DNA of 63,658 nt, filler included, from Platydemus manokwari (Eukaryota), in NCBI GenBank assembly GCA_037951405.1. It is 5 parts of 5 records of this genome, joined end to end, with 100 filler letters (N's around TTAATTAATTAA, not from the genome) between each part and the next. Parts side by side here need not be neighbours in the genome. Positions count along the whole stretch, not along the records: positions 10,537 to 29,422 come from JBBMOY010188894.1; 4 more parts are not named here. The stretch is one strand, 5' to 3'. The position numbers and the translations under genes are program-made. Positions 7,901 to 54,476 of the stretch are shown here, piece after piece. The notes below the pieces were generated by a model. It was given only the letters and a program-made list of their open reading frames with translations, had not been told where the DNA came from and made no database searches. The first letter of the stretch is position 1; every line of letters starts with the position of its first letter.

Positions 7901-9499
7901 ATTATGATTTGATCTAATAGCTATAAAATCATATTTTCTCTTTGATATTTAAAAATAAAAATGAGGATGAAAATTAATTAAGAAACATAAATTCCATTAC
8001 AATCTTGGTTCTGTTTACATGATGCGAGTGTGCCTGAATAATTTTAAACGCTCTCATCAAGTGGAGAGATTTATCATTACAATCTGAACCATATGACCCA
8101 ACAACCATGCAATTTATTCTGTAATGTTTTTCCTTCCACTGAAAAGATATGAAACATCACATTATTTGAGCTGGTCGCATTACTAGCGCTATTGTGTTTG
8201 TAATCCAGAAGTAGTAATGACAGTATCTGTTAAGGAGATAAGTTGTGCTACTAGACGTATATTATGAGCTGATAATTATTCAGAAGAAGTGTTAGGACTT
8301 AGTTAACATTTATAACTTTTATATTCAATTCGTTATTGATGTCGTAGCCAATCAGTTACATTCAAAACATAATGCATGAAGTATGGTATTTTCAGAGTTT
8401 GATTTATAAGACTGATAATATGAAATACTCAAAAATTAATACATGAAATTCAACGAAGACTAAATACTGTACTGTTTTTGTTTAATAATACGATTGATGG
8501 CATTTATTGTGTTTTTATATTTACGATAGCTGGTGTGCAACTGCAATTATCTGAACTTCATATACTTCAATAGATGAAAGGTGTTATATGTTGCTAAAGG
8601 AACGTTTGATGTGATAAATGCAGAATCTTGATGTATTCTAAATTTATTCACAGAAAATAAACACAAATATCTTACTTATCTTTTCAATATCTTTATGCTA
8701 AAAGTTTTGTTAATACGTTACAAATCGTGTTTTGCGATCTATCCAAAGAGATAATAAATAGCAGCTATTATTATTATTTCAAGCGTGATAAAGAATAAAA
8801 TATTAAAAATAAAAAGCAACAGTTTAAAATTATAAGGAAAACTTAAACATGAAAACTATAATTTTTATAAATTTATCTTATATATTGTGAGGTTTATTTA
8901 TTTACATATTTATAATTATAAAAAGTTAAATTAAAAGATATTTTAAAAAATTATATTAAAAATAAATATACGATATTGATAATTAAAAAATGATCTTGTT
9001 TAAAAAATTAATGTTCAATTCAAAAAAATTTATTAAATTTATCATTGAAAGTAATTTTAAATGAGAAATTAAAATGTAATATAAAAATGTTAGCATTTTT
9101 ATTTATTAAAAAGAAGATAAATAAATCAAATGTAAATAAATTTTAAATATTTTAAAATATATTTTAAAATGGATGTATTATAAATTGATATTATTTGTTT
9201 TGTTGAAAACATATATTATGATTTGAATATTAAAAAGTTTCAGTAACTAAAATATGTAATTTACTACTTATTACACTTTGTGAGTTATATAATAATAGAA
9301 ATAAATGATAGTTCTTAGAACCATTTTTAATATTATATCTTTAATTCTTTGTTAGAATAAAAGAACCCATTTTAGACATCAGGTCTTTTCAATTTATCTT
9401 AATCGCTTTTTATAAATTCCATCTCTAATAGACAAAAAATGATATAAACTCAGATATTTAACAAGCGAAACACAGACAGAACTTTTAAAATTAAAATCC

Positions 9500-9800
9500 T
9501 CAATACGACAGCAATTATAAAATAGCAATTTATTTTACTTGAATTCATATTTTCAATCCACTTAAAAATAAAAAGAAAATCAAAAATAATTGCTTCAAAA
9601 TCCACAGCTTCATATAATAGGGAATCCTCACAGAAAATGTCCATAATAAATCCATAACTGACTCAATGAATTTTAACAGTCACTTTTTGATATTTCCACT
9701 AACGATACGCATCATTTAAACTTAAAAGCGAAATCAATTCGTGATCTAAAAGTTTTATTGTACATTCAACCCATTGAAGTTGTGCGTTGTACATCTGCAT
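9500..9800 (-). mobile_element. Possible hAT transposase C-terminal remnant
   Basis: EDSLLYEAVDFEAIIFDF resembles the tail of the hAT dimerisation domain; weak. Confidence 0.25.
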
Positions 9801-10436
9801 TCAAATAAAACAATTAAATAATAAACGATGTGGTTCTCTTAGGAAATCATCAAACTGAATAAAAAACTGGATTGCACGAATTAAACCCAATCATGATTGT
9901 AATCAAACATTTCTTGAAAATTATTTTTCTTTTATTTGAATTTGAAAATAACTAATATCTTTTTACAAATCGTGAAATCATTGACTTGCTGTTTTTGACC
10001 AAAAAATTAATAAACGCTAAATTCTCGGTTAAGAATTTTTGTAAGTAGTAATTTATTTATTAGTTTAATAGGGGGCTTTGTTGGGTGTGCCTAATAATCT
10101 GATTTTAAAAAACAATAAGTTGATCGCTAAGTTATATTTTATATCACAATGTGCATATCTATGATAATGAATTAATTTTTTCACGAATGCCAAGTCCTTG
10201 AATAAGATCTGTCAAATGAACAAGAAAAGCGAATCAAGCCCGTTCACAGGATTAAGGATATATACTCCTCATCTTACTACGACGTTAGTAAATACTTCGC
10301 AATAAATTTTAAAAATGCCATCTTTTACAAAATAATTTTAGATTAGTAAATACTTTTACGAATTGGTTCTATGAAATTCAATTCTTATTAATTTATTTAA
10401 GCTATCAGTCTTCTATTAATTTATTTTTGTTCATAT

Positions 10437-10536
10437 NNNNNNNNNNNNNNNNNNNNNNNNNNNNNNNNNNNNNNNNNNNNTTAATTAATTAANNNNNNNN
10501 NNNNNNNNNNNNNNNNNNNNNNNNNNNNNNNNNNNN
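10437..10536. other. Scaffold linker N44-TTAATTAATTAA-N44
   Basis: Exactly 100 nt; the 12-mer at 10481-10492 puts a stop in all six frames. Confidence 0.97.
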
Positions 10537-10609
10537 TGTTTAAATGATTTGGTAAAACAAAAACTTTAAACAACTAAAAAACATGAATAACTTTTGACTC
10601 AGCCTAATA
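10537..10609 (-). mobile_element. Terminal segment of a young Tc1/mariner-like element
   Basis: Reverse complement starts TA-TTAGGCTGAGTCAAAAGTT, a mariner-type TIR at a TA. 74 nt are identical to 29523-29596. Confidence 0.65.
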
Positions 10610-13420
10610 TATGTTAAAAATATGTTATTCTACAAATGAATACAATAACATCAGATTCAGATTAAACATTGAAATTAGAAAGAGATGTAATTAATGAAGA
10701 TCAATTATTAGAATCAAAGATATTACTCAGAAAATAGATTATGATTTATTAAAGATTAAAGGCAGTGGTTGGAATATATTTGAATTAGGATAAATGTGTT
10801 ATCCGGAAATAATTATATACCTTTACCCTCTAACAGTTTTGTAAATGTAAAAAATTACGATACCAAATATTTCTCGTATTCAATACTAGCTCATTTAAAT
10901 CCAGTTGATGGAAAAGAACGCCCAAATAGACACGTTCATTATCCAGAACATTTTAACAAAATAAATATAGATGGAATAACATTTCCAGTGCCCATTAATG
11001 AAATTAAAAAATTTGAAAAGAACAATTATTTTAAAATAAATGTTTACGGTATTAGGGGAAACCGAAACCTACGTAAATATTATAGATTATTCTTAATCTA
11101 TATTTAAAAAAACAATATATTCAAGATATTAAACTTTGTATTTTAAAAAGATTGGTATATCTCATTATGCACTGATTAAAAGTTTCGGTCGATTAATGAG
11201 CGGAGAATTAAATTATAATCTAAAATAAAATGAAAAACTGAATATTTGCGATAAATGTTGTTCATATTTTGTAAAAGAAAGTAGTTTCATCAATCATCAA
11301 TAAGTATAAGGTAAAGATGGTAGGAATATAACAAGTGTAGTTGTGCCAAGTCAACAAAATAATATTTTTAAATTTAAAAACTATAACCATCACATTCCAA
11401 TTCCATTTATAATAGTAGCTGATAGAGAGTGTGCTAATATAGAAACCAATAAATTAAAAGGCAAAGCAGCAAGGGTTTTATGTAATCAAATACCTTCTTG
11501 TATTTCTCTAAAGTTAATTTTTAGATATCCAGATCTAATAGATAACAAATTATTTCAAGGAGAAAATTGTATAAAAGAATTCGTTCAATGGATAATAGAT
11601 AATGAAAGTAGATTTGAATTTAAATCAATGACAAAATTTGGAATTAATATTACCGGGGAACATGAAAATAATTTTAATATTTCAACGGATTGCATGCATT
11701 GTAAAAAGTAATTCATTGAATAAACAATAAAAGTTAGAGATCATGATCATCATCTCAAACAAAACAACTACAGAGGAGCTGCATGTGATAAATATAATTT
11801 ATTATCAAGGAAATCAAAAGATTTTTCCATTACATTTTATCTATTGATCAAAATATGATTTTCATTTGATAAAAAAGAATTTACAAAGAAATCTGAGAAA
11901 AATCTAAAAATACTACCATTAACAGAAGAAATTTCCATTTCCTTTAATTATGGGTGTATTAGATTTAAAGATTTACTAATGTTGTTTGTAAACTCTTTAA
12001 ATAAGATAATTAAATCTATTAAAACAGTGGAATTTATAGAATTAAAATAAGAATTCGGAGAAGATTTAGATTTAGGTTTAATGAAACAAAAAAGAATCTA
12101 TCCATATGGCTATATAACTTCATTGGAAATATTAAATAAAACTAAATTACCTCCAATAGAACGATTTTATTCTAAATTAAATTTAAGTGGAATAACATAA
12201 GAAAAATTTCAAAGAGCACAAACAATTTGGAATAAATTCAATAGTAAAACATTATGGCATTACACAATCATATATTTAAAGCAAGACGTAGATATCCTAG
12301 CAGGTGCTATTGAATCATTTTGAACTAATTATATATATGTATCAAAGAAATTTAGATCCAATCCACAATGTTTCTTCCCCATCTTTAACTTGGGAATCAG
12401 GATTAAAAGAAACCAATATAAACTTGGAATTATTTACAGATAAAACAATGTACGAGATGATTGAAGAAGGAATAAGAGGAGAAATATCATCAGTAATGGG
12501 TAAAAGATACTTTAAAGGTATTAATAAATATATTAATGATAATATAGATTGTTATTATTATCTTGAAGAACATGAAATTAACAGAATAATAGAAGACTTC
12601 AACAAATATGAAAAGGGCACTAATAAGATACGAATTGAATTTTTTGATTTAAGTAAATATTTTGACAAGAATTATTTAATGTATATTGATGCCAATGATT
12701 CATATGGATGAGCAATGAGCCAATCATTATCTTATGAAAATTTTAAATGACTTGTTTTAAAGGGTTAAATAAAACAAATAATAATTTAGAAGAATTTACT
12801 TCAATATTAAATCAATTACCACCTGATTCCTGAACAAGGATTAATTTTAGAAGTTGATCTTGAATATATAAACGAAAGTAAAAAAAACTAACAATGGATT
12901 TTTCTGTAGCTCCAGAAAAAAAAGGAAGTAAATTTTGAAATGTAAAGTGAGAATCAAAAATAACAAATAAAAAAAATCATTTATCAGAATTATTAATTTG
13001 TGACGAAACAGATAAAAGAAATTATGTTATCTATTATAGAAATCTTCGGTTTTATTTAAAAATGGGCATGAAAATAAAACGAATAAACCAAATATTATTG
13101 TTTAAATAAAAACCATATTCAATCAAATACAAATCTAAGAACCAAAGGAACAAGTTATTTTGAAAAGGATATCTGGAAATTAATGAATAAAAACAATTTT
13201 GGAAAAACAATGGAAAAATATTCGAAAATGAGAAAATATAAAATTATTGATTGATCCCATTAAATCTAAAAACAAAATACAAAACCAACTAATAAAAGAT
13301 TTACTAAATTTAGTGAGGAATTATTTGGAATATATATTATCAAAAGGAACAAGTAAAATTAAATAAGCCAATTTATTTACGATTTTACATTTTAGAATTA
13401 AGCAAAATATTAATATATTT
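10610..13420 (+). pseudogene. Protein-primed family B DNA polymerase (pPolB), frameshifted and truncated before motif C
   Basis: Motifs in order: KGSGW, NYIPLP, YSILAHLNP, FPVPINEIKKFEKNN, IIVADREC (Exo I), CMHC..VRDHDH..YRGAAC, KYDFHLI, YPYGY, LPPIERFYSKLN, LDPIH..SPSLTW, IRGEIS, YIDANDSYG*AMSQ (motif A), KLMN..FGKTME (motif B), KLNKPIY..ILELSK. No YxDTDS seen. Confidence 0.92.
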
Positions 13421-13670
13421 CTTTCTCAAAATTCTCTTTGATTTCGTTAACACATTTTTCGAGATATTTCTTATTTACAGCATCTGTTTCATGTTTTGGA
13501 TCACCCAAGTTTGTCATTCTATAATTGTTTAATTCTAAATAACCTCTCATACAATCACCTTCCTCATTAATATATTTTCTATCATAAATTCGTTCTTAAA
13601 CACTAATCATTTCTCGAACATCTCTCATATTATTTATTGAACTATTATCAAATTTATGAACTATAGACAT
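13410..13670 (-). pseudogene. Fibre/adhesin-neck-like viral ORF with one internal stop
   Basis: MSIVHKFDNSSINNMRDVREMISV*ERIYDRKYINEEGDCMRGYLELNNYRMTNLGDPKHETDAVNKKYLEKCVNEIKENFEK; matches the GDxMxGxLxxxxxRITNLxxPxxxxDAVNKKY pattern. Confidence 0.65.
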
Positions 13671-14104
13671 TTTTAAATTTACAATTTAAAATCTGCTTTT
13701 CGATTTCATTCCACAGATGATCAATAATATAATCAAATTTTAATCCATTATCTAAACAATATTAAGCATACAAAGATGATTGTCCACATAATTTTCCTTC
13801 TGTTTGTATTTTAATTTTATTCTAAACAAAATCAGAATCTTCACCTTCAAAGAAATTATAAACTTCTCTAGTTGGTAAAATTCCATGAGGATAAAATTTA
13901 ATTTTATGAGGTTTACTTATTGAAACCCAATGAGAACCCTTTTCTTTTGTAGTTTCTAAATTCATTATTATATATTTTTTATCAGTAAAATTCTTCTCTC
14001 ATAATAATTTCAATATCTAAATTTAAATTATCAGAAATATCCATTAAATCTAAATTAGTAGATTTATTAATTCCATACTTAACTAGAAAATTTAATAAAT
14101 CCAT
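13654..14104 (-). pseudogene. Adenain-like cysteine protease (virion maturation protease)
   Basis: STNLDL..IMREE(frameshift)..YIIMNLETTKEKGSHWVS..KFYPHGILP..*NKIKIQTEGKLCGQ. Catalytic His, oxyanion Gln and Cys are present; the usual FDS Asp is altered. One frameshift and two stops. Confidence 0.85.
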
Positions 14105-14131
14105 TTGTTGAAAAATAAAAATTTAATTTGA

Positions 14132-15335
14132 TTAAACTTGTTTACGATGAAGTCTCAAAGATATTTCTTCTTTATTAAAATCTATTAAATCTCCATTTTG
14201 ATCTGTTATTTCAAAGGTAATTTCACCAATCTTAAACCATCTAACTCGTTTGTAACTTTCAGGCACAATGAAGTTGCGGAGATTGTAGCAAAGTGTGTGG
14301 AATATCAGACCGATTATAGAATCTTTATAGATAAGAAATGTCAATCTGCCAACTCCAACCTTCTAGTGGACTTACAAATGGTGAATAACAGAAAATCTAC
14401 CATCATGTTAATTGACATCAAATGCCCCATGGCAAATCAAAAAAACCTCACCAAGTACGACAGTCTCAAAAAAGAGGTCAAAAAGAACAAGCCAAAATTC
14501 ACGGTCAAATTTCACACTTTGATCGTGGGCGTGCTCAGAACATGGGTGAAGTCAAATGATGGAATTCTGCGAAAATTGGGGCTTAAACAGCAAGTCATCT
14601 GCAAACTAGCGATGATATGCATAAAGTCAAATATCAATGCATCGTACCTCCAATGGCAGTTCCACACTGGCAAAATAAACTCATACTGCCCCTAATTAAC
14701 GAAAACAAGTGGGGAATACTATTCACAGTTGGACCTTGACTCTGAGGACTGTAGATGAGCAATCAATTACTGGAAGTAGCCAAGAGAAATGTGATAATAG
14801 GTTCAATTGAAAGAAAGAATCTATGTTATAAGTCGTAAGTTATCACGGCTTACCAATCAATCATTGTCTTAAATAGATATTTGTTTTTTTGGTTTTTGTT
14901 TTTTTTTGTTTTTTTTATTAAATATTGGAAAATAGATTACTTGATTTACTTCTTTAATATATAAATAACTTGGGGAACACTATTAGCTGGAAAACTATAA
15001 ATAATATTTGTGCTATTTCCAGCTACATATCTTCCATCAACTATTCAACATTCAGCATTTATTCGCATAAGCTCAGAAATTTTTATTTTATTTTCTGATA
15101 AATGATTTCCAGTAGTGTATAAATTATTATTATCAAATCCTAAAGCAAAACCTTGAGTAAGTTATTAATGGGATAATAAATTATTACAAAGTGTTTTTAA
15201 TAAATATGATAATAAAATTCATTTAATTATTGGTGTTAGCCCCATTTTCAAAATTGAAATCGGAGGAATATTAGAAAAGATGTTTAAACTTAAAGTTTCA
15301 AAAATTAGAAATATTTTATTTTTAACGTTTGTCAT
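14132..15335 (-). pseudogene. Penton/minor capsid protein gene split by a retrotransposon insertion
   Basis: N-part (15335-14914): ALGFD..GNHLSENKIKI..INAEC*IVDGRYVAGNSTNIIYSFP..VIYFPIFNK. C-part (14233-14132): KIGEITFEITDQNGDLIDFNKEEISLRLHRKQV*. Removing 14234-14913 rejoins PIFNKKIGEI. Confidence 0.8.
14234..14913 (+). mobile_element. 5'-truncated non-LTR retrotransposon with restriction-like endonuclease (NeSL/R5-like)
   Basis: ORF to 14695: (ILNH)..RHNEV..VDL..LIDIKCP..KY..IVGVLRTW..NDGILRKLG. About 185 nt of 3' UTR, then a T-rich tail at 14881-14913. GC is higher than the flanking viral DNA. Confidence 0.85.
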
Positions 15336-15458
15336 TTATTATTAATGTAACTTGTTATTTTCTATCTTCATTAACTTTACTTATGCCACTTTTATTTAAT
15401 AGCTTACTACTTGCTACTTATTGAGCCCTTTGAAATTTAACAAATTTAATAATATCAT

Positions 15459-15641
15459 TTATATATTATCAGGTAAAGTTATTTCATTGCTATTGATTGA
15501 CCCCCCCCCTTCATTACTTTTGGCAGAGGAACTTTCATTAATTTGTTCTATATGTTTTTTAGATTTTTCATGAGCTTTTAAAGCTTGAATGGTCTTGAAC
15601 GTCGAGTCGCAAATTTGGCATTTATGCTCATTCATTTTCAA
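15459..15641 (-). pseudogene. Small C2H2 zinc-finger ORF, first gene of the viral minus-strand cassette
   Basis: HKCQICDSTFKTIQALKAHEKSKKH = CxxC-x12-H-x5-H. Confidence 0.7.
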
Positions 15642-15755
15642 GATTTATTTTTTGATAGGTTTTTGTTTTTCTGGTTTTTGTAATTTTTGTAATTTTCTGG
15701 TTTTCTAGTCTTTGTAATTTGTAAAAAATATGTTTTATTCAATAAAATGTCATAG

Positions 15756-15864
15756 AGTAGTAATATAGACCAATTATTAGACAGTGTAAATCTCCAATAC
15801 GAATGAGCGAAAGCGAAAGAGGATTTGAGGGTTATGCTGCTTAGAACTGGTCTATATTACTACT
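15756..15864. repeat. Palindromic Polinton-type terminus (AGTAGT...ACTACT)
   Basis: AGTAGTAATATAGACCA (15756-15772) is the perfect reverse complement of TGGTCTATATTACTACT (15848-15864); imperfect symmetry continues inward. Confidence 0.85.
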
Positions 15865-18025
15865 GATCTTCTCCAGTATATAAAAATCAATGTAGCGGAA
15901 AACAGTGTCCTCAATAATATGTTATTGTAGCAGTGTTAATTGTGACTGCCGCCTTATATAGGCAACTACGAATCACTCGCAGATATTCTATGGTATAAAA
16001 TTTAATGCCAGTGTATTTAATAATATCTTGCTGGAAATTATTTATCAGAGAGAGAAATATATTTTATTCAGTGATTGTATTTAATGTACCCGATAATAGG
16101 CGACAATTTATTTGTCGATATTATTGCGCGATAATATATTACGTGTTAATATTTTATAAATAAATTTATAATTTAGGGAATTTAATGCAGGATTTTCAGG
16201 CATTATTATTTCAGATATTTACAGATAATAATTATTATAAATACTAATATATTATATTATTCTAAGCTTATTTCACTCAAATAATCTGGGAGTTGTTAAG
16301 ATATAAAAATACACAATGATGAAGATTAATACAATAAAAATTAATGCACATCCCATAGCCATTGTCATGCCTAAAAAGATGATTATTATAAATATTGCTA
16401 TACAACATTGTACATAGTTTTGTGTGAATTATTTGGTCAATACCCCAACATTATGACTAATTTTCTAGCCACTATAAAAGCGGAAGACCAACCGATAGGA
16501 ACACACATTTACACAAAATAAGCACAGTTAAAATACAGAAAGTTTTACACAGAAAGTTGCAATAACTCTTGCAAATCTCCACAACAGTCCGAATGAGCAG
16601 TTCATCAAGTTACTGACCTGGCTAAATTGTCGAAACCACCATCCAGAATCGGGGGTCAATCAAGAAGGTGAGCCTTAAAATATATGCTAATTGCGTTAAG
16701 GATTGAAGTTCTAGGTAAGCGATTGGTTTTAATATAAATTTATTTCGTAATTAAATCGATTATTAAAAAAAATATTTGAGATCAATATCAAATCCTCAAA
16801 AGTTGTTTACCGATATGGATTGATTCAGTTTAAAATCTTTTATTAAATATTGGAATTATCTTTCATTTCAAATGACGTTTGGCAGAATAATGAAAAATAC
16901 TGCGGTTGTATTTCGATTATTAAAATTGATTTATTTATTTTCATCTAATATTGATTTCGGAGTTATTGTTTTAATAATATATCACAACTAATTAAGCAAT
17001 TTAGCAACAAGTTTGCACTGATTTCGGAATTAATATAAATTTGCTTAATTCAAATTCACAGAGATGTTTGGTAATGTTTTATTGATTTTTTGGTATTAAT
17101 TAACCCTGTTTGGTTTTGACATCAGATGATGATTCTGATCGAAATGTTAGTGTTTTTAATTGTTCGATATTTAATGTCTCATTGTCTTTATTGAAAATAT
17201 TAACACTATAATGTACTAATTCGATTTTTACGTGGTTTACTATTGATTTTTAACAATATTCGATATTATTAAGTGATTTTATCATACATCGATTTTATTG
17301 TCATAAACTGAACAATTATCGTTGTTAATGTTATTCAATAATCAATCATGTTCGGAATCGACTGAAATAAAGTATCTTAGGAGTTTCCTATAAAATTTTG
17401 ACCTTATATCTTGGTGTTTCCCATCGTTTATGTTATCTCATTATTTCCGGATGTTAAATTTATAGCTTTAGTTTTCTCGATTCCATGATTGTCTATGCTA
17501 GATTTAATTGGCAAAAAGCACGGAAGTGTTTCTTTCCCAAATATCCTCATATAAAAGGCACGAATTCACAATAATGAGTCTGATAAGCCATACCCTGATG
17601 TTACAAAACGTGAAATTAGTTGAGGGAATTCATTATTACACAACAGTTATACAAAATCAATTGTCGGATCTTTTAATTTATAATTTATGATTGATTTTAT
17701 TGATTGAAATTGAATTATTAAAATTGGATTTTAACGCTTTCAAAGTTTAATAATTTACTGAATAAACCTTTAATAATCAGGGGAGATATTTTACTAATAG
17801 GCGGATTTTGTCATGATTTTAAGCCATTACCGTATGACAACACTTTAATTGCTAAATTCAAAACCGAAATCCTAAAGTTCATCATTTGACTTGCTGAATT
17901 TGTATTTGGTTTGATCAGTAATTCTATCAGAGATATCACAGAAAGTTTATTTGATTTCAGTTGAGATGATATTGATTTTTTTGTAGTAACATTTGAAATA
18001 TTTGTGTTCTTATATTTCAGATATT

Positions 18026-18607
18026 GGCTAAACTTAAAAAATGGTCCTAAAATGAAATTTTAAATTTGTTGAGTGCGTTGCAGAAATCTATATAGTTTAT
18101 TTAATTACATTCTTTAAAAACATTTTCAATTTTTTATTTAAGTGCTTAAGAAGAATTTTAGTTGTTTGACATCAAATATTAAATACATTGGAGCTTAAAA
18201 ATCTCGTAAAATTTGATTTTTGGAAAAAATGAAAAAAGTAGGTCGGATTGCAATTTATTGAAAATTAGCGAGGACCCCTGTTTTAACATTAGAAGCGAAT
18301 TGAGATCTAAAAATAACCAATGATATTATTAAACATGGCTGTAATTAACTAACTCGATTTATAATTATAAAAATATAAATTTAAAAACTCAAATAATCAC
18401 TTAGAAGTGTTGTGATGAGAATCGGAACTTGGTTTAAAAACCATGTTTTGTCACTATTAGACATCTTAACAAATGAGATATTAACTGAATTATACGAATA
18501 AATCAAACAAAGCAGTAATATATAAAATTAAATTATAAAATTATCTCGCGCGCGAAAATTCATTACAACGAAAGTGAGTCAAAGGACCCTTTTTCTGAAC
18601 TTAAGCC
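18026..18607 (+). mobile_element. 582-bp MITE with GG..CC termini and 8-bp TSD (Merlin-like)
   Basis: Imperfect ~25-bp TIRs (GGCTAAACTTAAAAAATGGTCCT / AGGACCCTTTTTCTGAACTTAAGCC); CAGATATT duplicated at 18018-18025 and 18608-18615. Confidence 0.75.
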
Positions 18608-19406
18608 CAGATATTGTTTTTTGATCTAATATTGGAAATATATCTATTCTTATATCTTCACAGAGTGACGAAGAAGATAAAATCGAAAAATTGAAAAATG
18701 AAATTCGGAGTAACTAACTGGTGTTAATGCTTTATCGATTGAATTAATATTTAAACATTAGGTTTAAAAAGAAAACATAATAAAGAAACGGGAGTTCTAA
18801 ATAATTCATTGGAGGAAAAAGAGGACATAATTAAAGGTAATTTTTGTTAGTCACGATGAGATTTTTCTGTCATATTTCGGGCTGCTTTTATCGAGTATTA
18901 TTGGCATCTTTTATAAAAGAGAAGATTTTTGATTTGATATTGATGATATTGATTCATTATATGAGTTTTGTGAGCCGCTACAATTTTATAAAGCGCGCAA
19001 ATATTTAATCAATAAACAGATATTTTAATGACACAACTCAGACATAGTGACAGACCTTCATCACAATGTGATGGGGTGAATATCACAGGGTTCGCATTGG
19101 TTCTTCTTCTCATTATCATTTGTCAAACAAGTTTGTCGAACATCTCCTCATCCTCAGAGTATGTCGACTTATCGTCCGAGATATTTTCGTGATTGTATTT
19201 TTCTGTTATGCTTATTGGTCTATAGAACGCACTGAGCGTACGACCGAAAAGCCACGACATCGAATTATGTATTCAAATAAAATACAATTATTTAAACAAA
19301 TTATTATAATTTTATAATTATAAAAATTTTTAAAAAATTTATTCATTGAAAAATCCTCACATTTCCTTTCTTTAAAAATCTTTGATTTTATTTTCATTCT
19401 GAATTG

Positions 19407-19756
19407 TATCAAATGCCCTACATATTCATCTATATCAAATGCCCTACATATTCATCTATATCAAATGCCCTACATATTCATCTTTATCAAATGCCCTACA
19501 TATTTATCTATATCGAATGCTTTACATATTTATCTATATCGAATGCCCTACATATTTATCTATATCGAATGCTCTACATATTTATCTATATCGAATGCCC
19601 TACACATTCATCTATATCGAATTCTCTACATATTCATATATATCGAATGCCCTACATATTCATATATATCGAATGCCCTACACATTCATCTATATCGAAT
19701 TCTCTACATATTTATCTATATCGAATGCCCTACACATTCATCTATATCGAATTCTC
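19407..19756. repeat. 26-bp minisatellite, ~13 copies
   Basis: Unit tatatcgaatgccctacatattcatc with variants, contiguous and without spacers. Confidence 0.95.
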
Positions 19757-20570: not shown

Positions 20571-21620
20571 GATATGAAATCAAAATTTAGTTACGATCAG
20601 TGCACAAATCTGAAATATTTAGCGATTCTTCATTTGAATGAAATAGCTATGAGCTTGACTCTATAAGTTAGCGATTTATGAAAAATAGATTTTTTAGCTT
20701 ATTCGATACCGATGAAAGAAAATGGGGAAGCTCTAAATCTCAGCAGCTCTCTTAACCTATTAATTATTATCATTAATTTTATAATTAATAAGCAATAACT
20801 AAATAATAATTATAATAAGTAAATTTATTATTTTAATTATAAATTAATATTAAGAGGATAGGTAAAATTATTTGAAGTCGAATTTAAAATAAAATATATT
20901 TTCTATTTCTAAAATAAGCTGTTTGTTTTAAATTTGTTTTTCACATAATTTCATAATGATGATTTTTCGCGCATCAAGTAATTTTATAATTCAATGTCAC
21001 GTGCATTATTTTTATATTAATTTTGTATCAAAATTGTATCAGTTGATTTTAAAACTGCTGGTTTAAGAAAGCTGGTGAAGCAATTCGAATGGCTAACAGT
21101 GCCATGTTGATAACCAAAGTTCGGAAGACATCTGAAAGACAGCCACTAAAACTTACCAGTGATTGACTCGGGCTCCCAATCACCAATTAAATAAAAAATT
21201 ATATTTTATATGTTTATTTTATATTTATATTGTAATTTTTGCATTTAGGATTGTCACACGAAGGCTTCGGAATAAAGAGAAATAATTTTATCAACAAATT
21301 TATCTTTTAATAGATTTTATAAATATTAATTTTCATTTTTTATGACATTCCTTTTTACCATTTCATCATGTTTCATTGATTCAGGAGTTCAGTTGGCAGC
21401 CCATTTTTCAGAATGTTGAATATCAATAAAACAGAACTTTTCAACCAGCTTCATGTTTAGATCTTAACACTTCTATGTGACTTTTTGTTTCGTTTTTTTA
21501 ATATTGAATTTCAAACAACCAATATTCTTCTTAGATAATTAAATAAAAAATTCAAAATATTTTTAAGTAATATAATTAACTATATCAATTTTTACAATAA
21601 ACTCAACAAATTGAAAATTT

Positions 21621-22201
21621 GACTAAAGTTAAATAAAAGATCCTAAAATGAAATTTTAAATTTGTTGAGTGTATTGCAAAAATCTATGTAGTTTATTTAA
21701 TGAAATTCTTTAAAAACATTTTGAATTTTTTATTTAATTACTTAAGAAGAATTTTAAATACACTAGAGCTTCAAAACTTCCTAAAATTTGATTATTTGAA
21801 AAATGGAAAAAGTCGAATGCAATTTATTGAAAATTAGCGAGATCACATTTGTTAACATTAGAAGCAAATTCAGAAAGATTATCAATTTTTACAATTATTT
21901 TAAAAATAACTAATGATATTATTAAACATGTCTGTAATTAACTATATCGATTTATAATTATAAAAATTTAAATTTCAAAACTCAAATAATCATATAGAAG
22001 TTTTGTGATTAGAAATGGGAACTTGGTTTTAAAACTATGTTTTGTCACTATTAGACATCTTCAAAAATGAGATATTAACTGAATTATATGAATAAATCAA
22101 ACATAGTAGTTATATATAAAATTAAGTTATAAAATTATCTCATGCGCGAAAATTCATTTTAACGAAAGTAGGTCAAAGGAGTCTTTTTCTTAACTTAAGC
22201 C
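21621..22201 (+). mobile_element. Second copy of the ~580-bp MITE
   Basis: Colinear with 18026-18607 over its whole length; TSD degraded; an extra terminal fragment follows at ~22216-22242. Confidence 0.8.
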
Positions 22202-23639
22202 AAAAGATTTATTTAAGGAACCTTTTTTTATTAACTTTAGCCGCAAATCTTAGGCTAACATTTATTGTTGCCATTAATAATATTATTATTTATTATTATT
22301 ACTCTTAATAAATCGTTATCAAATAAAAAGTATTTTCAAATTTTCATTGTCTCATCATTTGGAAAGCAATTGGAAGGAAATTAAGTCGTAAATGAAATCA
22401 TATTTTGTCTAAGCATATCTATAAATATTAACATCGAACTTCATGAAGAGTTTAATCAATTCAACATTCAAAAATAAATTTTTTGCAATGACATTTCATG
22501 AAGAAATGAGAAAAATATTGAGCAAATAATGTTTGCAAATAAATCTAATAAACACTTGTAATTTTTTCATGTTTAGAAATGGATTATTTTCGATTTCAGG
22601 CCTCATAAATCATCAGATGTGAAAACATATGAAGAGATGATATTGTTCATCAAATTGGTATACAATTACAACCAATTGGGATTTAATATCAACTCGTATT
22701 TTCATTATTATTCATTACAAATATTTGTGATTGAATAAAATATATTTATTCATTTTATCTAATTAGAGTCTATATTTTCATGACTACGTCATTGATGTTA
22801 ACAATTAAATCATTTTTCACAAGGAATAACCAATTATTTTAGTTTCATTGGCTATAATTGGATCAAATTATCAATTAAAACATGAAAATAACAGATAAAA
22901 TTTGATTGGTTGATTTTCATATGTTGTGATCTTTCTCGTCATGACGTAATTGTATTAGCATATCGAAAATATTGCTTGTCATTATCAATTATAAGGAGTA
23001 TTTATAAAAATCAATAAATCCGACCACTGATCAGTTGAGTTATGGAAATACCGAGCTATGAACGAATTGAAATGGCTCCAAATAAACATCAATATGTTTT
23101 ATCTTATTATTTTCAAATTTTATTAACTTGTGCAATTTCATACAAGATTACTCTGTGCTTGATTCCACTTAACAAATATATTTTTATAATTTATCACGAT
23201 CACATATAACACAAGATTGAATTTAGACCATCAAAGTGTAAATTTGTTGTAACATTAAAATAATTATAATAATAATAATAATTAATCTAGCCGTTTATAA
23301 TAATAATAATTTCCTGATTTCGCTTTTTGACAAAGTCGGTTTCGAAACTGCTTATCGATAATAATAATATCGATAAATCTTAATCATATTATTTCTACTA
23401 GTTGTACACGAAATTTTCGCTGCACTTTTATCAGCTATACTGGATCAAGCTTATGTACTATTTTTTGCTTAGCATTAAAATTTCTTCTTCAGTTTCCACA
23501 TATTCTGAAAATCCACAGTTGAAAAATAAAGATATTATTTCGTGTTTTAATTAATTTATTTCCTTTCTTTTTTCAGGAATTCAGACTATTAAGGTCAGTT
23601 TCTTTAATTGAAAATCCCTACCGATATATATTCTATATT

Positions 23640-24140
23640 GCATTCATAAATTCTCAACATATATTTGGTGCACTTCAAAGCAGCGTCTTAATTTAGAAGT
23701 CCAAGCTCGTTTAGCATTTTGAAGGGTAATTTGTGATATATCGTTCAAAGCTCTTCCAAAATTCGCTGTAAAATCATCAATAAACTTTATGTCACGTCGA
23801 CAATTCTGAATCTCTGTTAATAACAAGCTCCAAATGCAGTAATCTATGACATTTAAGTCTGGACTTTTGTAAAGATTATTCTTTGTAAAAAAATAGCAGT
23901 TTTTACACAGAAATTTTCCACTTTTCTAGCGACCACCTTGTATGTGAGGAATCAATTACAAATGGTTCACTTTATATTTTTTTTACCTTTTCATAAAATA
24001 ACATTTTGATTTAGCTTTTTTAAAATAAAATATTCCCTCATAAAATTGCAATAATTTAAAAATTTTGATTTCGATATTATCAGTGAAATTTATTAAACTG
24101 TTCTGAACATCCAGATGAAGTTATGAGACCTGCTGTACAT
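23640..24140 (-). mobile_element. Tc1/mariner-superfamily transposase C-terminal remnant
   Basis: SPDLNVIDYCIWSLL...ISQITLQNAKRAWTSKLRRCFE on the minus strand. Confidence 0.65.
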
Positions 24141-26300: not shown

Positions 26301-27167
26301 TATTTATAAATCTTCTTCATTCGATTTGATGCATTCAACGAAACGATTGACTGAGATCCACTGGCAGATGATTTATATGGGAATTAATAAATTGAAATTT
26401 CTCTCTTTGATGTCTGCTTGATTAAATTTCTTTTTTATAAAATGGGTAAATTTTATCACCAATTTAATATTTTAAAAGTATATCAAATAGTTTAATTTGT
26501 TTTAATGCATCTGAATATACTACTTATAAAACAAATGATGAGTGGCTTTTATCGGTATAGGACGTTTTTAATTATTAAATCAAACTCATTTTTGTTTAGG
26601 TTTTTTCAATGATTTTTTAATATTTTTTAATTTGTTTTATTCTGTCAACATTATACTACTTACTAAATTACTGTAAAAAGCAAAACGACAAATATAGAAA
26701 TTTTTAAAAATTTTAAATTCAAGTCGATAGAAATCTTGACATTTATTTATTCAAATATTTTTCGCTCGACATAGCTCGTAGAATAGAAATACTCCAACCA
26801 TTAAATTTGGTTCTTGAATGATAAACAGAAAATAATAATTACAAAAATAATTTTTTCCAGTAAATATTAGAAAGAAATTTTTTTCCCCAACTTTTTATAG
26901 ATCAAGTGCAAAAACGTACTAAGAAATTTGACAAGGGATTCTGTGAATTAGAATGACAAACAACATATTGCATTGAAAATGTTAAATGGATTATAAATCA
27001 TTGCATATTATTAAATGAAAAAGAAGAAATTGACTTCATATTCATTAAGACTGCTTGATATACCTTGAAATATCGTGAAAAATATGTTATGATAAGTACA
27101 ACGATAAATCAATGTTTTATTAATGAGTAATGTTTGCGTTGAAGGATTTTCTTTATATGTATATGTA

Positions 27168-27898
27168 TAGTATTGGAACGAAAGTCTTTTCCGACAGAAG
27201 ATAATATTAATTTAACCAATAAAGACAATACGTAAATTGAGAAATATAAATAAAACATTAATCGTCTGTAAATTTAAAAGATTTCAATGTTTTATGAAGA
27301 AATATTTAGTTTAAATGCATTATGAAACCATTTTTATTGTTTAATTTCTATCTTCTAATTAAATATTGTTTTAAATGGCTATTTTATAATAATAATATTA
27401 TTTAGTGATATATTAAGGAGTTTAAGCCAAGTGACTAGCAAAAGCTGACGTAATTTCGTGGAAAGATGGAATGAATGCGCCAGCAATTTAGAAGATGATT
27501 AACTCTGTGCTTGACACCGGTACCGTGTCTGCGAGAAACTGCCAGCGAATAATTGAGAAATTAATTGTTTTACGGTAATACCGCATCAACCATACTTTCC
27601 AAATCTCACCCCTTCAGATAATTACCTATTTTTTCATATGAAAAATGCATTACTCCACTGAGGAGGTTAAAGATGATTTGAAAAAGTGGTTTGCTTGAAA
27701 ACCTGCGGAATTCTATGAAAACGGCATAAAACAACTTCCAGAATGCTAGCAAAAATATGTGGACCTTAACGTTGACTATTGTCAACATTTCAGATTTACA
27801 GACGAATGATGTTTTGTTAATATTTCTCAATTTACATATTGTCTTTATTGGTTAAATAAATATAATTTTCTCAGGACAAAACTTTCGTTCCGATCCTA
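27168..27898 (+). mobile_element. Internally deleted mariner with long (~120 bp) imperfect TIRs, TA-flanked
   Basis: PHQPYFPNLTPSDNYLF (cf. PHPPYSPDLAPSDY) and KPAEFYENGIKQLPEC*QKYVD; inverted repeats at 27168-~27290 and ~27775-27898. Confidence 0.85.
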
Positions 27899-29248
27899 TA
27901 TATACATACATATATATATATATATATTGTTTATCTTCATAAAACATTCATAAAAGTAACTTTTCCAACAACAGACAGTACTTATAATCAAATTCCATGA
28001 TATTGAATTTGCTAAATATAGCACTGTTGGTATTTTTCTTGTAGGATGAACGAAATATTCGTGGAAAATATTTAATGCCTAAAATAGCGCGATTCGTGAT
28101 TGACGTAGAGAGATTTAATTCCAATGTGCAATTCGATTGAAAGCTAAGATGTAGTCCTTCTCTATGATATTGGCAGAATGAATATATCAGATTAATATAT
28201 ATAATCTGCAATTACTGAATAATATCCGGTAATCCGACAATTCTTATTTAACGTTTATGCCTATGATGAAATTTCCAGCATCGATTTAGAGTTTGATCGA
28301 TTGCATTTAGAGTTTTAGGCAGCTGCTGCAGACAATTCTGATATTACCTATTATTTGTTTGAAAGCTACCGTTGTAAATAGATGAAATGGTTTTTCATTG
28401 TATTTTATTTGTAAGAAATAAAATGATTTAAATTTATTATTATGATAAATATAATATCATAATTACATCATAATTATGGCAATGGGAATTTGCAATCACA
28501 AAGTATAATAAAATGTTTGAATATTTAATATAGAAACCGTTTTGATAATTATTATAAACTATATGTCGGCATCATGCTGTGAATAAACTTGAAATTGGAA
28601 ACTCCAAGCGATAATACAATTGGTTTGTGAATTTTATCTGCAAGATATTCACAATTACTATTAGTGTGTGAAGGAATTTGATTTGTACTTTGCTATATTA
28701 AATGACATTTAAATCCAACAAAATACATTATTCCCTGATGTCCGTATAAAATCTTATAACTGACATGTCTTTGAAGACTTATAAATTTGTTATTAAATTT
28801 TTATCAAGTCTTCCCTTTAATGTTTCAATTAAATTTTAACGCTTATAAACGATTTGATATGTGCGTCAAAAAAAATATTAACTTAAATTATTATTATTAA
28901 ATTACAATGTATTATTTGTAATTTTTATTTAATTATTTTAAAAATGAAGTTTTGTTATTTCATTTAAAGATGCCATAAGATTTAAATACAAAAGAATATG
29001 TTTTTAATTCACAAATATTGAAAAAATAACTTAACATATTGACGGACAGTAGGAACAAATGAAGTTCAAATTATAAACGCAAGTATCCGTCAACGTGTTA
29101 AAAATCATTTCTTTAACGAATATTCATTATAGTTTAAACACAGTACTCGTGCATAATATTCTCAGAACGCTTTAAGTATTATCATAGTAATATTAAATTT
29201 GATAAATTTAAAATTTAAGAAAATTTAATGTAAATCTAAATATTTTTT

Positions 29249-29422
29249 GGCTAAAATTAAGAAAAAGGGTCCTTTGACCAACTTTCGTTATAATCAATTT
29301 TCTCATATGAGATAATTTTATAACTTAATTTATATGTAACTACTGTGTTTGATTTATTCGCATAGTTTAGTTAATATCTCATTTTTTTAGGATGTCTAAT
29401 AATTCCCATTCTATTCAAAAGA
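29249..29422 (-). mobile_element. Third, inverted partial copy of the GG..CC MITE running into a gap
   Basis: ggctaaaattaagaaaaagggtcctttgacc... is the reverse complement of the 3' end of 18026-18607. Confidence 0.75.
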
Positions 29423-29522
29423 NNNNNNNNNNNNNNNNNNNNNNNNNNNNNNNNNNNNNNNNNNNNTTAATTAATTAANNNNNNNNNNNNNNNNNNNNNN
29501 NNNNNNNNNNNNNNNNNNNNNN
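29423..29522. other. Scaffold linker N44-TTAATTAATTAA-N44
   Basis: Same 100-nt layout. Confidence 0.97.
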
Positions 29523-29595
29523 TGTTTAAATGATTTGGTAAAACAAAAACTTTAAACAACTAAAAAACATGAATAACTTTTGACTCAGCCTAATA
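29523..29595 (-). mobile_element. Terminal segment of the young mariner-like element, second copy
   Basis: Identical to 10537-10609. Confidence 0.65.
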
Positions 29596-29849
29596 TTATC
29601 GTTACTGATCATTGATTCGGTTTGGTCCTACGAGCTTCTGTTATTAATAAGATCACTAACTCATGAATTAAAATCTTTATAATTATATATCGATTTTAAA
29701 CATTAATATTATTACGTTCGTCTTGTTATTATATTCAACCTTTTATATTCAACTATTACTATTTAATTATCATGTAGAATTGATTATTTACCAACAAAGA
29801 ATCTTAGGACAAAAATAAATTTATCAATTTTAAATGAATATAGACATAT

Positions 29850-33487: not shown

Positions 33488-35139
33488 GTTTTGACTGGAA
33501 ACTCTTATTCTGTGTGAATTTCACGTGATTTTTTTGATAACCCGTCTTTGTAATAAACTATTGTTTCGCCGTTTAACTTTCAGGTACTCTTCCATTACTG
33601 ATTTAGTGTGATTTTAATCGCATTTGGTAACGAATCGAGTTTCATAATCTATTACAATTTTCAGTATCCATCTTCACTTGATTTTCTACCAAAAGGAATT
33701 GATTCGAAATAGACATTGAAATTTTCTTTTATTTTTGTTTTAAATTACAAAATAATATAGCAAAAATTATTATTATGCTGTCGACTTAAGATTGACTTTT
33801 AAATGGAATTTTTGTGTCGCTTATAAATAATTCTCTTTACCAAAACCATATTTTCAAAAATCAAATTTATTCGATTAATAAAATTCGATCCAATTTGTTT
33901 GGAAAATATTCATCAAATAACCTTTATATGATTTCTATTCAGCATATCGACGTAAAAACATTTAGGCGAACTCATTTAATGATCGGAATTGTTTATTTTT
34001 GCCTTTTTTAAAATAATCTCCAAATTATTAAATAAAAATAAATGGAATATATTTTCAATTTTCTTTTCATGTCAAATTCATACAAAAATTGCAAATATTA
34101 AATTCTAAATATCTAAAAATTAATCAAAAACGCTTTTAATAATACATAAACAACTGATCTTTCCGGTCTGTACCATGATAATAAATTAATATGTTTTAAT
34201 ATATCAAGCGAGGCAGATTGAAAACTTTATAAAACTATTAATTGCATCCAGTAACGTTGTAAGAAAATGAGTTTTTTGCAATTTTTAATGTAAATACAAT
34301 ACAATTGTCTTAAAAATAAATTAAAAAAATGTTCAATACCACTTCAATCAGCAATCTATTTCCTGTTCAGTCCACTCAAATCTGTCAAGGAGATTGTTCT
34401 TAATTAATATGTCATAACCAGCTATTTCTTTGTCCAATAAATTCAGAATATCAAAGTTTGTTTCATTTAATTTCGCGATACCGAAAAATCTATTAGTTTT
34501 CAAAACGAATTCGTACTCATTTATCAGTAAGTTTTTCTTTGATCATTTTTGATTCAATAAAGGTCTTTGGTCGTAGAATGTCGCGAACAAAGTTCAGTTG
34601 AAAGTATTTATTTGTAAAATAGTAATGGAAACATTTAGAATCTTTTTTGTCGATTACTAACATTCTGTTTTCGTTTAATTTTCATTAATTATTTCTTCTT
34701 TGAAACATAACATCATTTATTGGGTTAAATTAAAAAAATTTGTCAACAATAAAATTCCAATTCAACTAGTGATAATGATATTCTGACCTTCAAAATAAAC
34801 TACGACTTTGATAAAACAAATATTTAAAAATTATAATTAAAATAAAAAACAGTTATTTGAATTATAATTACTGTGTATGAGTATACAGTTAGAAATTATG
34901 AAATTTCAAAGATCAGTTAAATCTTTGTCAGTGAAAAGAGTTCAGATAGGTCATTGATTAAAGTTTCTAATATAACAGCGGCATGTATAAAGCATTCTTT
35001 GACTCTGACCTTCTTTTGGAATATATTATAAAACTTTTATTATATATTCGTTAATTATTTCATTTCAATATGCGAAGAAATTTAGTAAGTAACAATAATC
35101 AAATAAAATTTTACAGAATTTAAAATCTACTTTCAGCGA

Positions 35140-38100
35140 ATGGATGTTGAAGATTTCCGAATATACGGGAAAGAATTAGTGGATTATATTTGCACATATC
35201 ATGCAACTCTAGGCCAAAGAAGAGTTATTCCAAATGTGAGTCCAGGCTATCTGTCACAGTTGATGCCAAATGAGCCACCAAATTCTCCAGAAAAATGGGA
35301 TGACATAATAAACGATGTGGAACGATTGATAATGCCCGGAGTAATTTGGAAAGGCTTTTTTATTGCTATTAAAGCTAATATTACTCAAAATTAGATTACA
35401 CATTGGCAACATCCGCGATTTCATGCTTATTTCCCGTCAGGAAATTCTTTCCCATCAATTATGGGTGATCTGATGTCAGGTGCCATCGGTTGTATTGGAT
35501 TTTCGTGGGTAAGAAATATAAAATTTAATCTACGTGATATACGATATATTATTTAGAGATAAATTACTTCTTATTTTAATACTATATTTTATATAAATTT
35601 TATCCATTTCACGTTTCTTATGTGTATGTTTATAATTGAAAGTTTTAGATAATATATTTATATGGCTGGAATTATAATCGTCAATATTCTCCAACAAACA
35701 ATGACATTAATAATACATTAGCAATCAGACTATATTAATAATAATCCCACCACGAAATTAAAATATATACATGTTAATATTGTGATATTTATTGATTATC
35801 TTTAAGTTATGAATTATTATTTTTTGAGAAAATATTATATTTGGCTTGTTACCTTCTAATTATGCAATTATTAATCGAGATTTGGTTAAGTCAATTGATT
35901 TTCTAATCATATCAATGTATAAAACAATTATGTTCATAAAATTATTTTTCCAAATATTACAATAGAATATTTCATGTAATTGATTTTCCCAGGCTGCAAG
36001 TCCAGCTTGTACAGAATTAGAGATGATGATGCTTGATTGGTTGGCAAAAATGATGAATCTGCCCAAAGTGTTCATGCACAGTGAAGGTCTAGGAGGAGGT
36101 GGAGTAATTCAGGTATCAATTTCATTTATTAACTTGTGTTCACATACAATTGCATTATTAATTCATTTTCGAAAGAACAAAGATGAAAATAACAGAAGAA
36201 ATCATATGATAGAAGAGTTTCAAGATTTATTCCTTTTTTATATTTATTATTATGGTTGACAAAAATCAATTATAGGATATTAAACGATGAGAAAAAGTCA
36301 CACTTTAGTTGTCGGAACAATTTCAGATATGCACTAGATTCACGATTACAATTATTTTGGTAATTATCATAGAGATAATTCTGATAAATCGTATCGGCTT
36401 GTTATCGACTTCTAAGTAGATCTGAAATATACCGACGATAATAATATCTGATATGACAATATTATTAGATATAATCATTTCGAAATTATATTTGAATTAT
36501 TAAAATAAAAATGAAGTATTTCAACTGTGCGAAAAATTTAAACGAATAATTTTAATAATAATTTAATAATAATTTCAAAAATTAAAAAAATATATTTTGG
36601 ATATGTATTAAATTATTGTAAAAAAGTTAACATTACATAGTTACATTATATATATGTGTGTGTGCGTATGTGTGTGTGCGTATGTGTGTGTGCGTATGTG
36701 TGTGTATGTAAAAATAAATAAGTTAAGAAAATGTATAAATGAATTCTTCCGTTAAATCTTCAATATTAAGCGAAGTAGTTACTACTAATATCAATAAAAA
36801 TACTTTCAATGCAAATCAAATAATATATGAAACATGCTATGAATATTGTGATTCGTCATTTGGTCTAAAATATCAAATTTGTTCTCCACACGATATACCA
36901 AATAAACCACTTGCAAAAATATAAAAAATAAATCAGTTTTCAATGTAAATTTCAGTGAATGCTATAATGAACATTAAATACGTTCTCTTTTATGTGTAAT
37001 ATTATTTTAAATAAAACTTAATTCCACAACATGAACAATGACAAGAAATGAATTCTAGAATATTTTATTTGAATTATAGAGATCCAAAATTTCATTGAAT
37101 TATTCGGGAAATTGGATTTTTTCATTTTCTGGAATAATTTTAAACACTTTTATTAATAAAAAAATATTATTCCATCAATTATTTTTGTTTTTGTACCACT
37201 TATGATTATAGTTTCTTCAAATAAAATTTTTATAAATTATAGATTTATGAATGATAATTAAAGTCACGTTGAACATGAAACAAATTATAGCGTAACTGGA
37301 GTCAAAACCAATGACAGATCGATTACAGTAAAGTTGAAGAGGTTGTCTTTTCTATACTGATGAACGGAAACTGCTACAAAACTTGGCTATTGATTGACTA
37401 TCGATTGTGATTGTCAGTTATTCGACATATATTCATTCACTTATAACCCTTACAGTTACAATTTTAGAAAATACTAAATATAGTATTAATAAAATCTCAA
37501 ATATTTTATTTAGTCGATCGTTTAAATAACTTTTTACAATTCGAATCAATTGATCAAGTTATATATAATTCATAGTGAGTATAGCCAATGATAAATCATT
37601 TTTAAGTAATACAATTTTAATGCTATTTTTATCTCATTTTTAGGGATCTGCTAGTGATTGTATTCTTGCATGCATGCTGTCTGCTCGACACCAAACTATA
37701 AAAGATTTTAAATCGCGTTTTCCACTTAAGAAAAAGATTGAAAATATGGAACAATCGAGGAACATTGAAGCGGCAATTCTGACAAAGCTGGTTGGGTACT
37801 GTTCTTCATTGGTGATGAATAGTTAATCTTTTCATATTTCGATAATGTTCATTATTTTTAAAGGCACATGCTTGTGTTGAAAAGGCTGGAATGATCTCAT
37901 TCGTAAAAATACATCAACTAGATGTGGATGATGAATATTCGTTGAGAGGATCGACATTGGAAGAAGCAATTGAAGTTTTTAAAAAAATTTAAAGATGATT
38001 TTTTTTAATTTTTTATGTAGAAAGACAAAAGAGCTGGATTGATTCCTTTTTTTGTAAGTTAATTCCTACAGTTTAGTCAATATTTTAAATTTCCCCAGGT

Positions 38101-40801: not shown

Positions 40802-41044
40802 GTATGTAATCAATCTATTAAACATCATCGTATAATTTTAATATCGTCATTATATTGATAATTCGAAAAATTTCTCTGACATAAAACCATTGAACTTTAT
40901 TTGATTTATAATTTCTCTAAAGAATTTAAAATAGATATTATTATTGGTATTGATTAAATTTTAAATAAGTACGTCCATATTGTTAATGTTTACCATTGTT
41001 TCATTCAAATATCCACGAATTCTTTGTTTCTAAAAGCGTAAGAT

Positions 41045-41144
41045 NNNNNNNNNNNNNNNNNNNNNNNNNNNNNNNNNNNNNNNNNNNNTTAATTAATTAA
41101 NNNNNNNNNNNNNNNNNNNNNNNNNNNNNNNNNNNNNNNNNNNN
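41045..41144. other. Scaffold linker N44-TTAATTAATTAA-N44
   Basis: Same 100-nt layout. Confidence 0.97.
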
Positions 41145-54363: not shown

Positions 54364-54476
54364 TTATTATTATTATNNNNNNNNNNNNNNNNNNNNNNNN
54401 NNNNNNNNNNNNNNNNNNNNTTAATTAATTAANNNNNNNNNNNNNNNNNNNNNNNNNNNNNNNNNNNNNNNNNNNN

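Follow-up and report, generated by a model that had tools for sequence, protein, structure and literature searches.

A probable fossil of a Polinton-type virus, decayed and internally deleted, in the genome of Platydemus manokwari

In a living Polinton, the polymerase pPolB uses protein priming at the terminal repeats to copy the linear genome, insertion is the task of the integrase, and the particles are built by the major capsid protein, the penton, the ATPase, and the protease. The locus considered here, at positions 10610–15864 of a 63,658-nt stretch of the Platydemus manokwari genome (the whole of which is called the window), is very probably the fossil of a Polinton (Maverick/adintovirus)-type virus that has decayed and been internally deleted. 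We favor this descent because pPolB and a single jelly-roll penton are both confirmed by homologues and by folds, and because the locus also carries a Maverick-type end motif. The accessible text of PMC11161782 and PMC6431247 defines the Polinton/adintovirus class by pPolB, integrase, protease, ATPase, and two capsid proteins; of these hallmark genes, two are shown in the fossil (pPolB and penton), one is probable (the protease), and three are lost (major capsid, ATPase, and integrase). The fossil makes no functional protein and can neither move nor form particles, and it is a new dead member of a well-known and widespread class. The Polinton/adintovirus-like descent named in the original prediction stands on the polymerase, the penton, and the end motif; the full virion-assembly cassette that it also named does not, as genes are absent and half of the penton is gone. 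Four features had escaped it: the end of the polymerase ahead of its last catalytic motif, the penton's reduction to a C-terminal part interrupted by a retrotransposon endonuclease fragment, the mariner end and gap at the polymerase start, and the likeness of the zinc-finger gene to the first 34 residues of the nearest polymerase.

Two groups of described elements come close to this locus. With the Beta adintoviruses, or pPolB2 Polintons (class Polintoviricetes), as presented in the accessible parts of PMC8502044 and 10.1101/2023.08.22.554363, the fossil shares a pPolB unmatched by PF03175, a His/Cys nuclease-like insert in its relatives, a single jelly-roll penton, a probable adenain, and a degraded germline state, whereas the hexon, FtsK ATPase, integrase, GasderminX, and Cupiennin are not detectable in it (for the last two, the only unassigned space is about 300 nt). 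With the vertebrate Mavericks, in the available portion of PMC8097293, it shares two convergent modules, the (AGT)2//(ACT)2 end, and the degraded state; it differs from them in size, about 5.5 kb against 12.7–24.6 kb, in an extra fibre-like open reading frame (ORF), in the fold-back at its end, and in having no target site duplication (TSD) shown. Among proteins, the nearest are a pPolB of 1290 amino acids (aa), P0001, which is 48% identical over 907 aligned codons and likewise starts with a matrin-type finger, and a penton of 166 aa, P0018, which is 62–75% identical. Both are too distant to belong to the same element family, and in the sets searched no catalogued protein is nearly identical to the fossil's.

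The features of the locus, from left to right, are the following, with the basis of each given in brackets.

10397–10436, + strand: probable short upstream piece of pPolB, left of a gap (resembles P0001 residues 110–121)
10437–10609, no strand: gap (10437–10536), visible end of a mariner-type DNA transposon (10537–10607), and TA, in the 5' region of pPolB (repeat identity, likeness of the terminal inverted repeat, TIR)
10611–13436, + strand: pPolB pseudogene, aligned over 10624–13436 (homology to P0001; fold of the relative P0007)
13410–13670, − strand: remnant of a fibre-like or adhesin-repeat ORF, with an internal stop at 13598 (atlas feature matches)
13654–14104, − strand: probable pseudogene of an adenain/Ulp1-type maturation protease, about 150 codons, frameshifted, with several stops (motifs, size, position)
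14132–14230, − strand: C-terminal piece of the penton (P0018 residues 135–166, 75% identical, E 4e-11)
14231–14913, junctions approximate, + strand: fragment read as a 5'-truncated non-LTR retrotransposon (one lacking long terminal repeats, LTRs), with the C-terminus of a restriction-like endonuclease (RLE), a 3' untranslated region, and a T-rich tail (motifs, GC content, position)
14914–15161, − strand: middle piece of the penton, with one stop and one frameshift (P0018 residues 51–133, 55/82 identical)
15162–15458, no strand: AT-rich stretch, GC 0.205, without a detectable penton N-terminus or pPolB linker (shuffle tests)
15459–15635, − strand: 58-codon ORF with a matrin/jaz-type C2H2 zinc finger (PF12171, E 2.7e-8; likeness to the P0001 N-terminus)
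15756–15864, no strand: right terminus, a 109-nt imperfect palindrome AGTAGT...ACTACT with 17-nt perfect arms (folding, repeat search)

Regarding the polymerase, the frameshifted pPolB predicted on the + strand is borne out by several lines of evidence. The single-frame stretch 11142–12320 retrieved 15 proteins of 749–1290 aa at E ≤ 0.001 from 2672 candidates, with P0001 as the best (E 7e-76) and three named insect proteins ranked lower. With P0001 as the query, tblastn recovered four segments over 10787–13436 (combined E 3e-136), and a frameshift-aware alignment placed its residues 119–1099 on positions 10624–13436 with 437 identities in 907 codons (48%), interrupted by some 16 stops and some 15 changes of frame; these counts depend on the alignment penalties. 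The alignment ends 12 residues short of motif C, located at residue 1111 of P0001, and the copy is without this last catalytic motif and about 190 C-terminal residues. The model of the intact relative P0007, built with 15 homologues (predicted local distance difference test, pLDDT, 81), found the phi29 polymerase at the top of the PDB by Foldseek (E 4e-17), and the PolB of adintoviruses, bidnavirus-like viruses, and MELD viruses at the top of BFVD (E 2e-54, 18–23% identity). In a tree of 16 rows, with no real root and no named Alpha or Beta reference, the window stretch is the sister of P0001 (support 100/99), on a long branch and apart from the three named insect proteins. This polymerase appears divergent and would fit the Beta adintovirus/pPolB2 class, because PF03175 is absent from 14 of the 15 homologues (it is precomputed in the remaining one, and neither P0001 nor P0003 matches it at E ≤ 5) and because a His/Cys nuclease-like insert, PF02945, is found in three of the 15.

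The penton was approached in the same way, by searching the frame 15335–14958 against 1.84 billion representatives, which returned 18 hits, 17 of them within the penton stretch, the best being 62% identical. P0018 aligns in three consecutive pieces, i.e., residues 51–113 at 15161–14973, 114–133 at 14973–14914, and 135–166 at 14230–14135 (65–75% identical), and the penton profile scores 75 bits on the middle piece (independent E 7e-22). What survives corresponds to profile positions 142–251 of 251, the C-terminal part only, and positions 1–141 were found nowhere in the window. A model of P0019, a full-length relative, was built from 13 of the 18 hits, leaving out P0025, P0027, P0030, P0031, and P0035 as short or spurious (pLDDT 85); it matches the mavirus penton (E 1.3e-11, Z 13.4, root-mean-square deviation (rmsd) 10.8 over 234 residues), followed by PBCV-1 (6ncl_a6: Z 12.8, rmsd 2.9 over 129 residues) and by the Sputnik and adenovirus pentons. 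The predicted identity of this gene therefore rests on homology and on the mavirus-penton fold of its relative, in agreement with a jelly-roll check set beforehand. One of the 18 hits, the repeat protein P0027 of 1859 aa, is spurious; no penton relatives were found in a phage collection, and a cluster look-up for 10 pentons gave no informative names.

The two confirmed genes belong to a convergent two-module layout, with pPolB on the + strand and the virion-module genes on the − strand. It is very unlikely that this layout arose from two separate Polinton insertions side by side, or from a chimeric assembly, with a polymerase piece on + joined to a virion-module piece on −, even though the scaffold is of a short-read style with several gaps, the junction at about 13420 is abrupt, and the right end has no left TIR partner. 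Neither a gap nor host DNA lies between the halves, their base composition is alike (GC 0.237 and 0.229), convergent modules are the normal Maverick layout, and the zinc-finger ORF at the right end matches P0001, the polymerase's nearest relative.

On the − strand, the four tightly packed genes of the original prediction are not an intact cassette, since about 683 nt of foreign DNA interrupt the penton, itself reduced to its C-terminal part, and some 300 nt (15162–15458) stand between the penton and the zinc-finger ORF. The closer spacings proved exact when the coordinates were checked: the penton stop TAA (14134–14132) is 28 nt from the next ATG at 14104, and the protease frame set, which ends with a TAA at 13656–13654, overlaps the following ATG at 13670 by 17 nt.

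The foreign DNA falls between P0018 residues 133 and 135, has a GC content of 0.367 compared with 0.24–0.25 in the penton pieces on either side, and keeps a + strand frame uninterrupted to 14695. In our reading, a non-LTR retrotransposon truncated at its 5' end landed here after the viral genes had begun to decay. In the feature atlas it lies at 0.96 to eukaryotic clusters without names, the nearest named family being zf-RVT (0.82), and it has no match in Pfam or the PDB; the short duplications at its junctions are ambiguous. By the spacing of its motifs, it may be NeSL/Utopia-like. In such elements the endonuclease motifs RH, PD-D, K..KY, and RG.W follow the reverse transcriptase and CCHC parts. 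The insert carries RH, D...D, K..KY, and R.W, in degenerate form, in the order given for the R2 RLE in the accessible part of PMC4838377, and it shares this order and the 5' truncation with RLE-type non-LTR retrotransposons of the R2 superfamily, from which it differs in having neither the reverse transcriptase nor the CCHC part. Two T-rich low-complexity tracts, one forming the tail of the insert (14868–14917) and one upstream of the zinc-finger ORF (15650–15717), are 85% identical over 34 nt, a likeness that is probably compositional.

Downstream of the penton, the six-frame translation of 13654–14104 shows a His in a G-x-H-W context and, later, a Gln...Cys-Gly, an arrangement that we take to be the adenain/Ulp1 pattern; the acidic residue of the triad is not recognizable. 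Judged by its motifs, this region is probably an adenain/Ulp1 protease. Matches of the protease frame to titin in the PDB (E 0.7–1.1) were dismissed as chance. The next ORF, 13410–13670, lies in the atlas at 0.93 and 0.91 to unnamed clusters in which most of the few members with a label belong to Preplasmiviricota, and at 0.81 to a YadA_stalk cluster; against Pfam it gave only Phage_T7_tail at E 0.1, under the cut-off. Fibre-like is a fair name for it, but no more than a name. The stop of this ORF and the final pPolB codons in the alignment overlap within 27 nt, and this overlap is the likely site of a central deletion.

The three remaining hallmark genes, i.e., the major capsid, the FtsK/A32-like ATPase, and the rve integrase, have no room in 10611–15864, where no unassigned space exceeds about 300 nt; because all but about 300 nt of this interval is accounted for, they are not in this copy, and we read them as lost by deletion. 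Among the 286 window ORFs of 48 or more codons, 213 were compared with Pfam and gave no capsid, ATPase, or integrase family, a weak test for decayed genes; the others were of low complexity or inside the element. An alternative that we consider improbable is that the locus was, before its decay, already a compact non-autonomous or integrase-less unit, defective-interfering or satellite, for whose copying a complete element supplied the missing functions. The spacing of penton, protease, and fibre-like ORF is tight and natural-looking, the terminal fold-back is bounded by the end motif, and the polymerase end and the fibre-like stop overlap within 27 nt, all of which would suit such a unit. However, a polymerase cut just before motif C and a penton without its N-terminal half would not have been workable even before point decay, the window holds a single copy, and partial Polinton copies are common in genomes, those with isolated TIRs being documented in C. 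elegans in the accessible text of 10.1101/2024.01.15.575659.

The right side of the fossil, preferred here as a decayed and deleted Polinton, starts with the AT-rich stretch 15162–15458 and the zinc-finger ORF (ATG at 15635, stop at 15461–15459). Comparisons of 10 penton N-termini with 15162–15640 gave chance-level scores (16–95 of 100 shuffles), on which the tail of the ORF and the AT-rich stretch were rejected as a penton N-terminus, and P0001 residues 36–190 against 15162–15458 were likewise at chance level (110 of 200 shuffles). The zinc finger is the only family that Pfam reports over the long six-frame read-throughs. The predicted coordinates and the C2H2/matrin-type finger of the ORF are upheld; its standing as a separate gene is doubtful. 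It matches P0001 residues 3–34 (tblastn E 0.013; 0 of 200 shuffles) and the N-termini of P0002 (1 of 200) and P0012 (3 of 200), these three of the 15 homologues having been chosen by eye; the + strand pPolB is without exactly the N-terminal part that it resembles, and the ORF starts 229 nt inside the right end. The likeness to pPolB ends after the finger (110 of 200 shuffles), and C2H2-type fingers of this sort are generic, which weighs against a terminal-repeat copy. From these comparisons, a copy of the polymerase start within a TIR and an accessory gene appear about equally likely. Maverick TIRs of 46–1447 bp, the range given in the available portion of PMC8097293, are long enough to hold the ORF.

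The 109-nt palindrome at the right end folds at −20.5 kcal/mol (z −5.6, 0 of 200 shuffles), better than all 1553 tiled windows, and is the only non-microsatellite perfect inverted repeat of at least 15 nt within 150 nt in the window. In the same portion of PMC8097293, (AGT)2//(ACT)2 is the commonest end motif of vertebrate Mavericks. It is possible, though doubtful, that the palindrome is instead an independent element resembling a miniature inverted-repeat transposable element (MITE) with Polinton ends, the true right end being elsewhere or lost and the zinc-finger ORF an ordinary accessory gene. Both end motifs are present, the 17-nt arms are perfect, and the ORF resembles pPolB in the finger alone; on the other hand, the flanking hexamers differ and no 6-bp target duplication surrounds the palindrome, there is no second copy in the 63.7 kb, and the palindrome, whose end is 229 nt past the start of the zinc-finger ORF, occupies exactly the place expected of a terminus.

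A further reading, which we hold to be unlikely, is that of a lineage with novel termini, in which each terminal repeat would hold the polymerase start and a fold-back of about 110 nt with the (AGT)2 motif on both arms, with a tight penton–protease–fibre-like run and distant relatives. Within one library of open papers, including the accessible text of PMC6431247, no account of Polintons with hairpins at their termini or inverted repeats close to them was found. If the reading were true, an origin in double-stranded form could be restored at a single end of a displaced strand, with no need for the panhandle by which adenoviruses pair their two ends, and fold-back ends would favor small copy-back or satellite genomes. 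The fold-back, with the possible presence of the polymerase start within the terminal repeat, is the one aspect of the locus that might interest specialists: should intact copies share it, it would bear on how Polintons regenerate their replication origin, a process not known to have been demonstrated by experiment.

At the left, the fossil probably extends slightly beyond 10610, across the gap. The piece at 10397–10436 has a local score of 33, which is reached in 67 of 1000 unconstrained shuffles and, when the position was constrained in a test devised post hoc, at 1 background position out of 1500; P0001 residues 1–109 have no match further left (28 of 200 shuffles). Paired TIRs with (AGT)2 or (AG)3 ends are expected of a Polinton; no left TIR matching the right end occurs in 9000–10436 or elsewhere in the window, and an AGTAGT at 10044 was rejected as the left end for want of an extended match. 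The segment 10537–10610 is 100% identical to 29523–29596, both directly after gaps, and 22 of 30 nt are shared with the Hsmar1 TIR printed in the accessible part of PMC4036204 (compared by eye); from these two facts we place a high-copy mariner in the gap. TA is present on either side of the gap region at the pPolB start. The identity of the two ends suggests that the mariner family is young and has many copies, which the assembly has collapsed. Each of the four 100-nt spacers (10437–10536, 29423–29522, 41045–41144, and 54377–54476) has 44 N on either side of a 12-nt linker with stops in all six frames, and they are assembly artefacts.

The present copy would then be a deletion derivative of about 5.5 kb, with the following history. 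A Polinton with a divergent Beta/pPolB2-type polymerase probably entered the germline upstream of a decarboxylase gene dependent on pyridoxal phosphate (PLP), and then died. One deletion would have taken the C-terminus of the polymerase and whatever separated the convergent modules, and a second loss the 5' half of the penton, joining the remainder to the right terminal region. The left end is gone as well, and point decay has left stops (about 16) and frameshifts (about 15) in the polymerase, as counted under the alignment model. The non-LTR fragment in the penton and the mariner in the polymerase start, both evident from their positions, presumably arrived later, because the RLE frame is still open and the mariner ends are identical.

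Several observations weigh against the reading of the locus as a decayed Polinton. The class, as formally defined, is incompletely represented, in that the integrase, the major capsid, the ATPase, a left TIR, and a 6-bp TSD are not demonstrable. The folds were modelled on intact relatives (P0007 for the polymerase and P0019 for the penton) and not on the window sequence. The terminal hairpin is not accounted for by simple decay. The protease frames match no family in Pfam or among PDB sequences, so that no homologue confirms the predicted adenain, which fits in its motifs, size, and position; Pfam likewise failed to recognize the penton relatives that are intact, as well as the polymerase family of the pPolB relatives, and as searches of Pfam with intact pentons, and of PDB profiles with intact pentons and polymerases, found no true family, negatives from these libraries are weak. 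Finally, the penton lies directly upstream of the protease, while vertebrate Mavericks have the order penton–PW–major capsid–protease in the available portion of PMC8097293.

To see the fossil as surprising is not supported by the literature, as most such copies are decayed: in that portion of PMC8097293, the degraded share of the 3,511 Maverick loci of vertebrates is 96%, and adintoviruses are reported from all eumetazoan phyla in the accessible part of PMC8502044. Few large repeats in animal genomes are as common as dead Polintons, and this one by itself matters little. It shows that the host lineage was once infected by a capsid-encoding, apparently Beta-like Polinton without a close named relative, and it illustrates cleanly how ORF tracks and Pfam can overlook viral genes.

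The surrounding window is eukaryotic, gapped, and AT-rich (GC mostly 0.21–0.33), and Rfam gave 0 matches over it; its composition and gene content suggest an invertebrate-like animal, and its eukaryotic character, with spliced decarboxylase exons, agrees with the Polinton reading. A gene of the PLP-dependent aromatic amino acid/histidine decarboxylase family, with at least 7 spliced exons, spans 35107–40855 on the + strand; seven ORFs match PF00282, and its PDB relatives, related at the level of the family only, are led by human histidine decarboxylase (E 1e-19). An immunoglobulin I-set exon (55722–55913, +) and a 286-codon frame with 15-residue repeats rich in Ser, Pro, Asp, and Asn (57972–58832, +) are probably parts of one host gene. 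Repeats include a tandem array at 19407–19752 (a 26-nt unit repeated about 13 times, with 91% matches) and dispersed repeats of about 600 nt at 18024–18615, 21619–22215, and 29237–29401, which are 81–86% identical with inverted parts and probably represent a small non-autonomous DNA transposon. A frame at 23644–23925 (−) resembles, by its motif, the C-terminal part of a Tc1/mariner transposase and has no Pfam match, and an inverted repeat pair at 27154–27279 and 27788–27914, 84% identical over 128 nt and about 760 nt apart, is likely a MITE.

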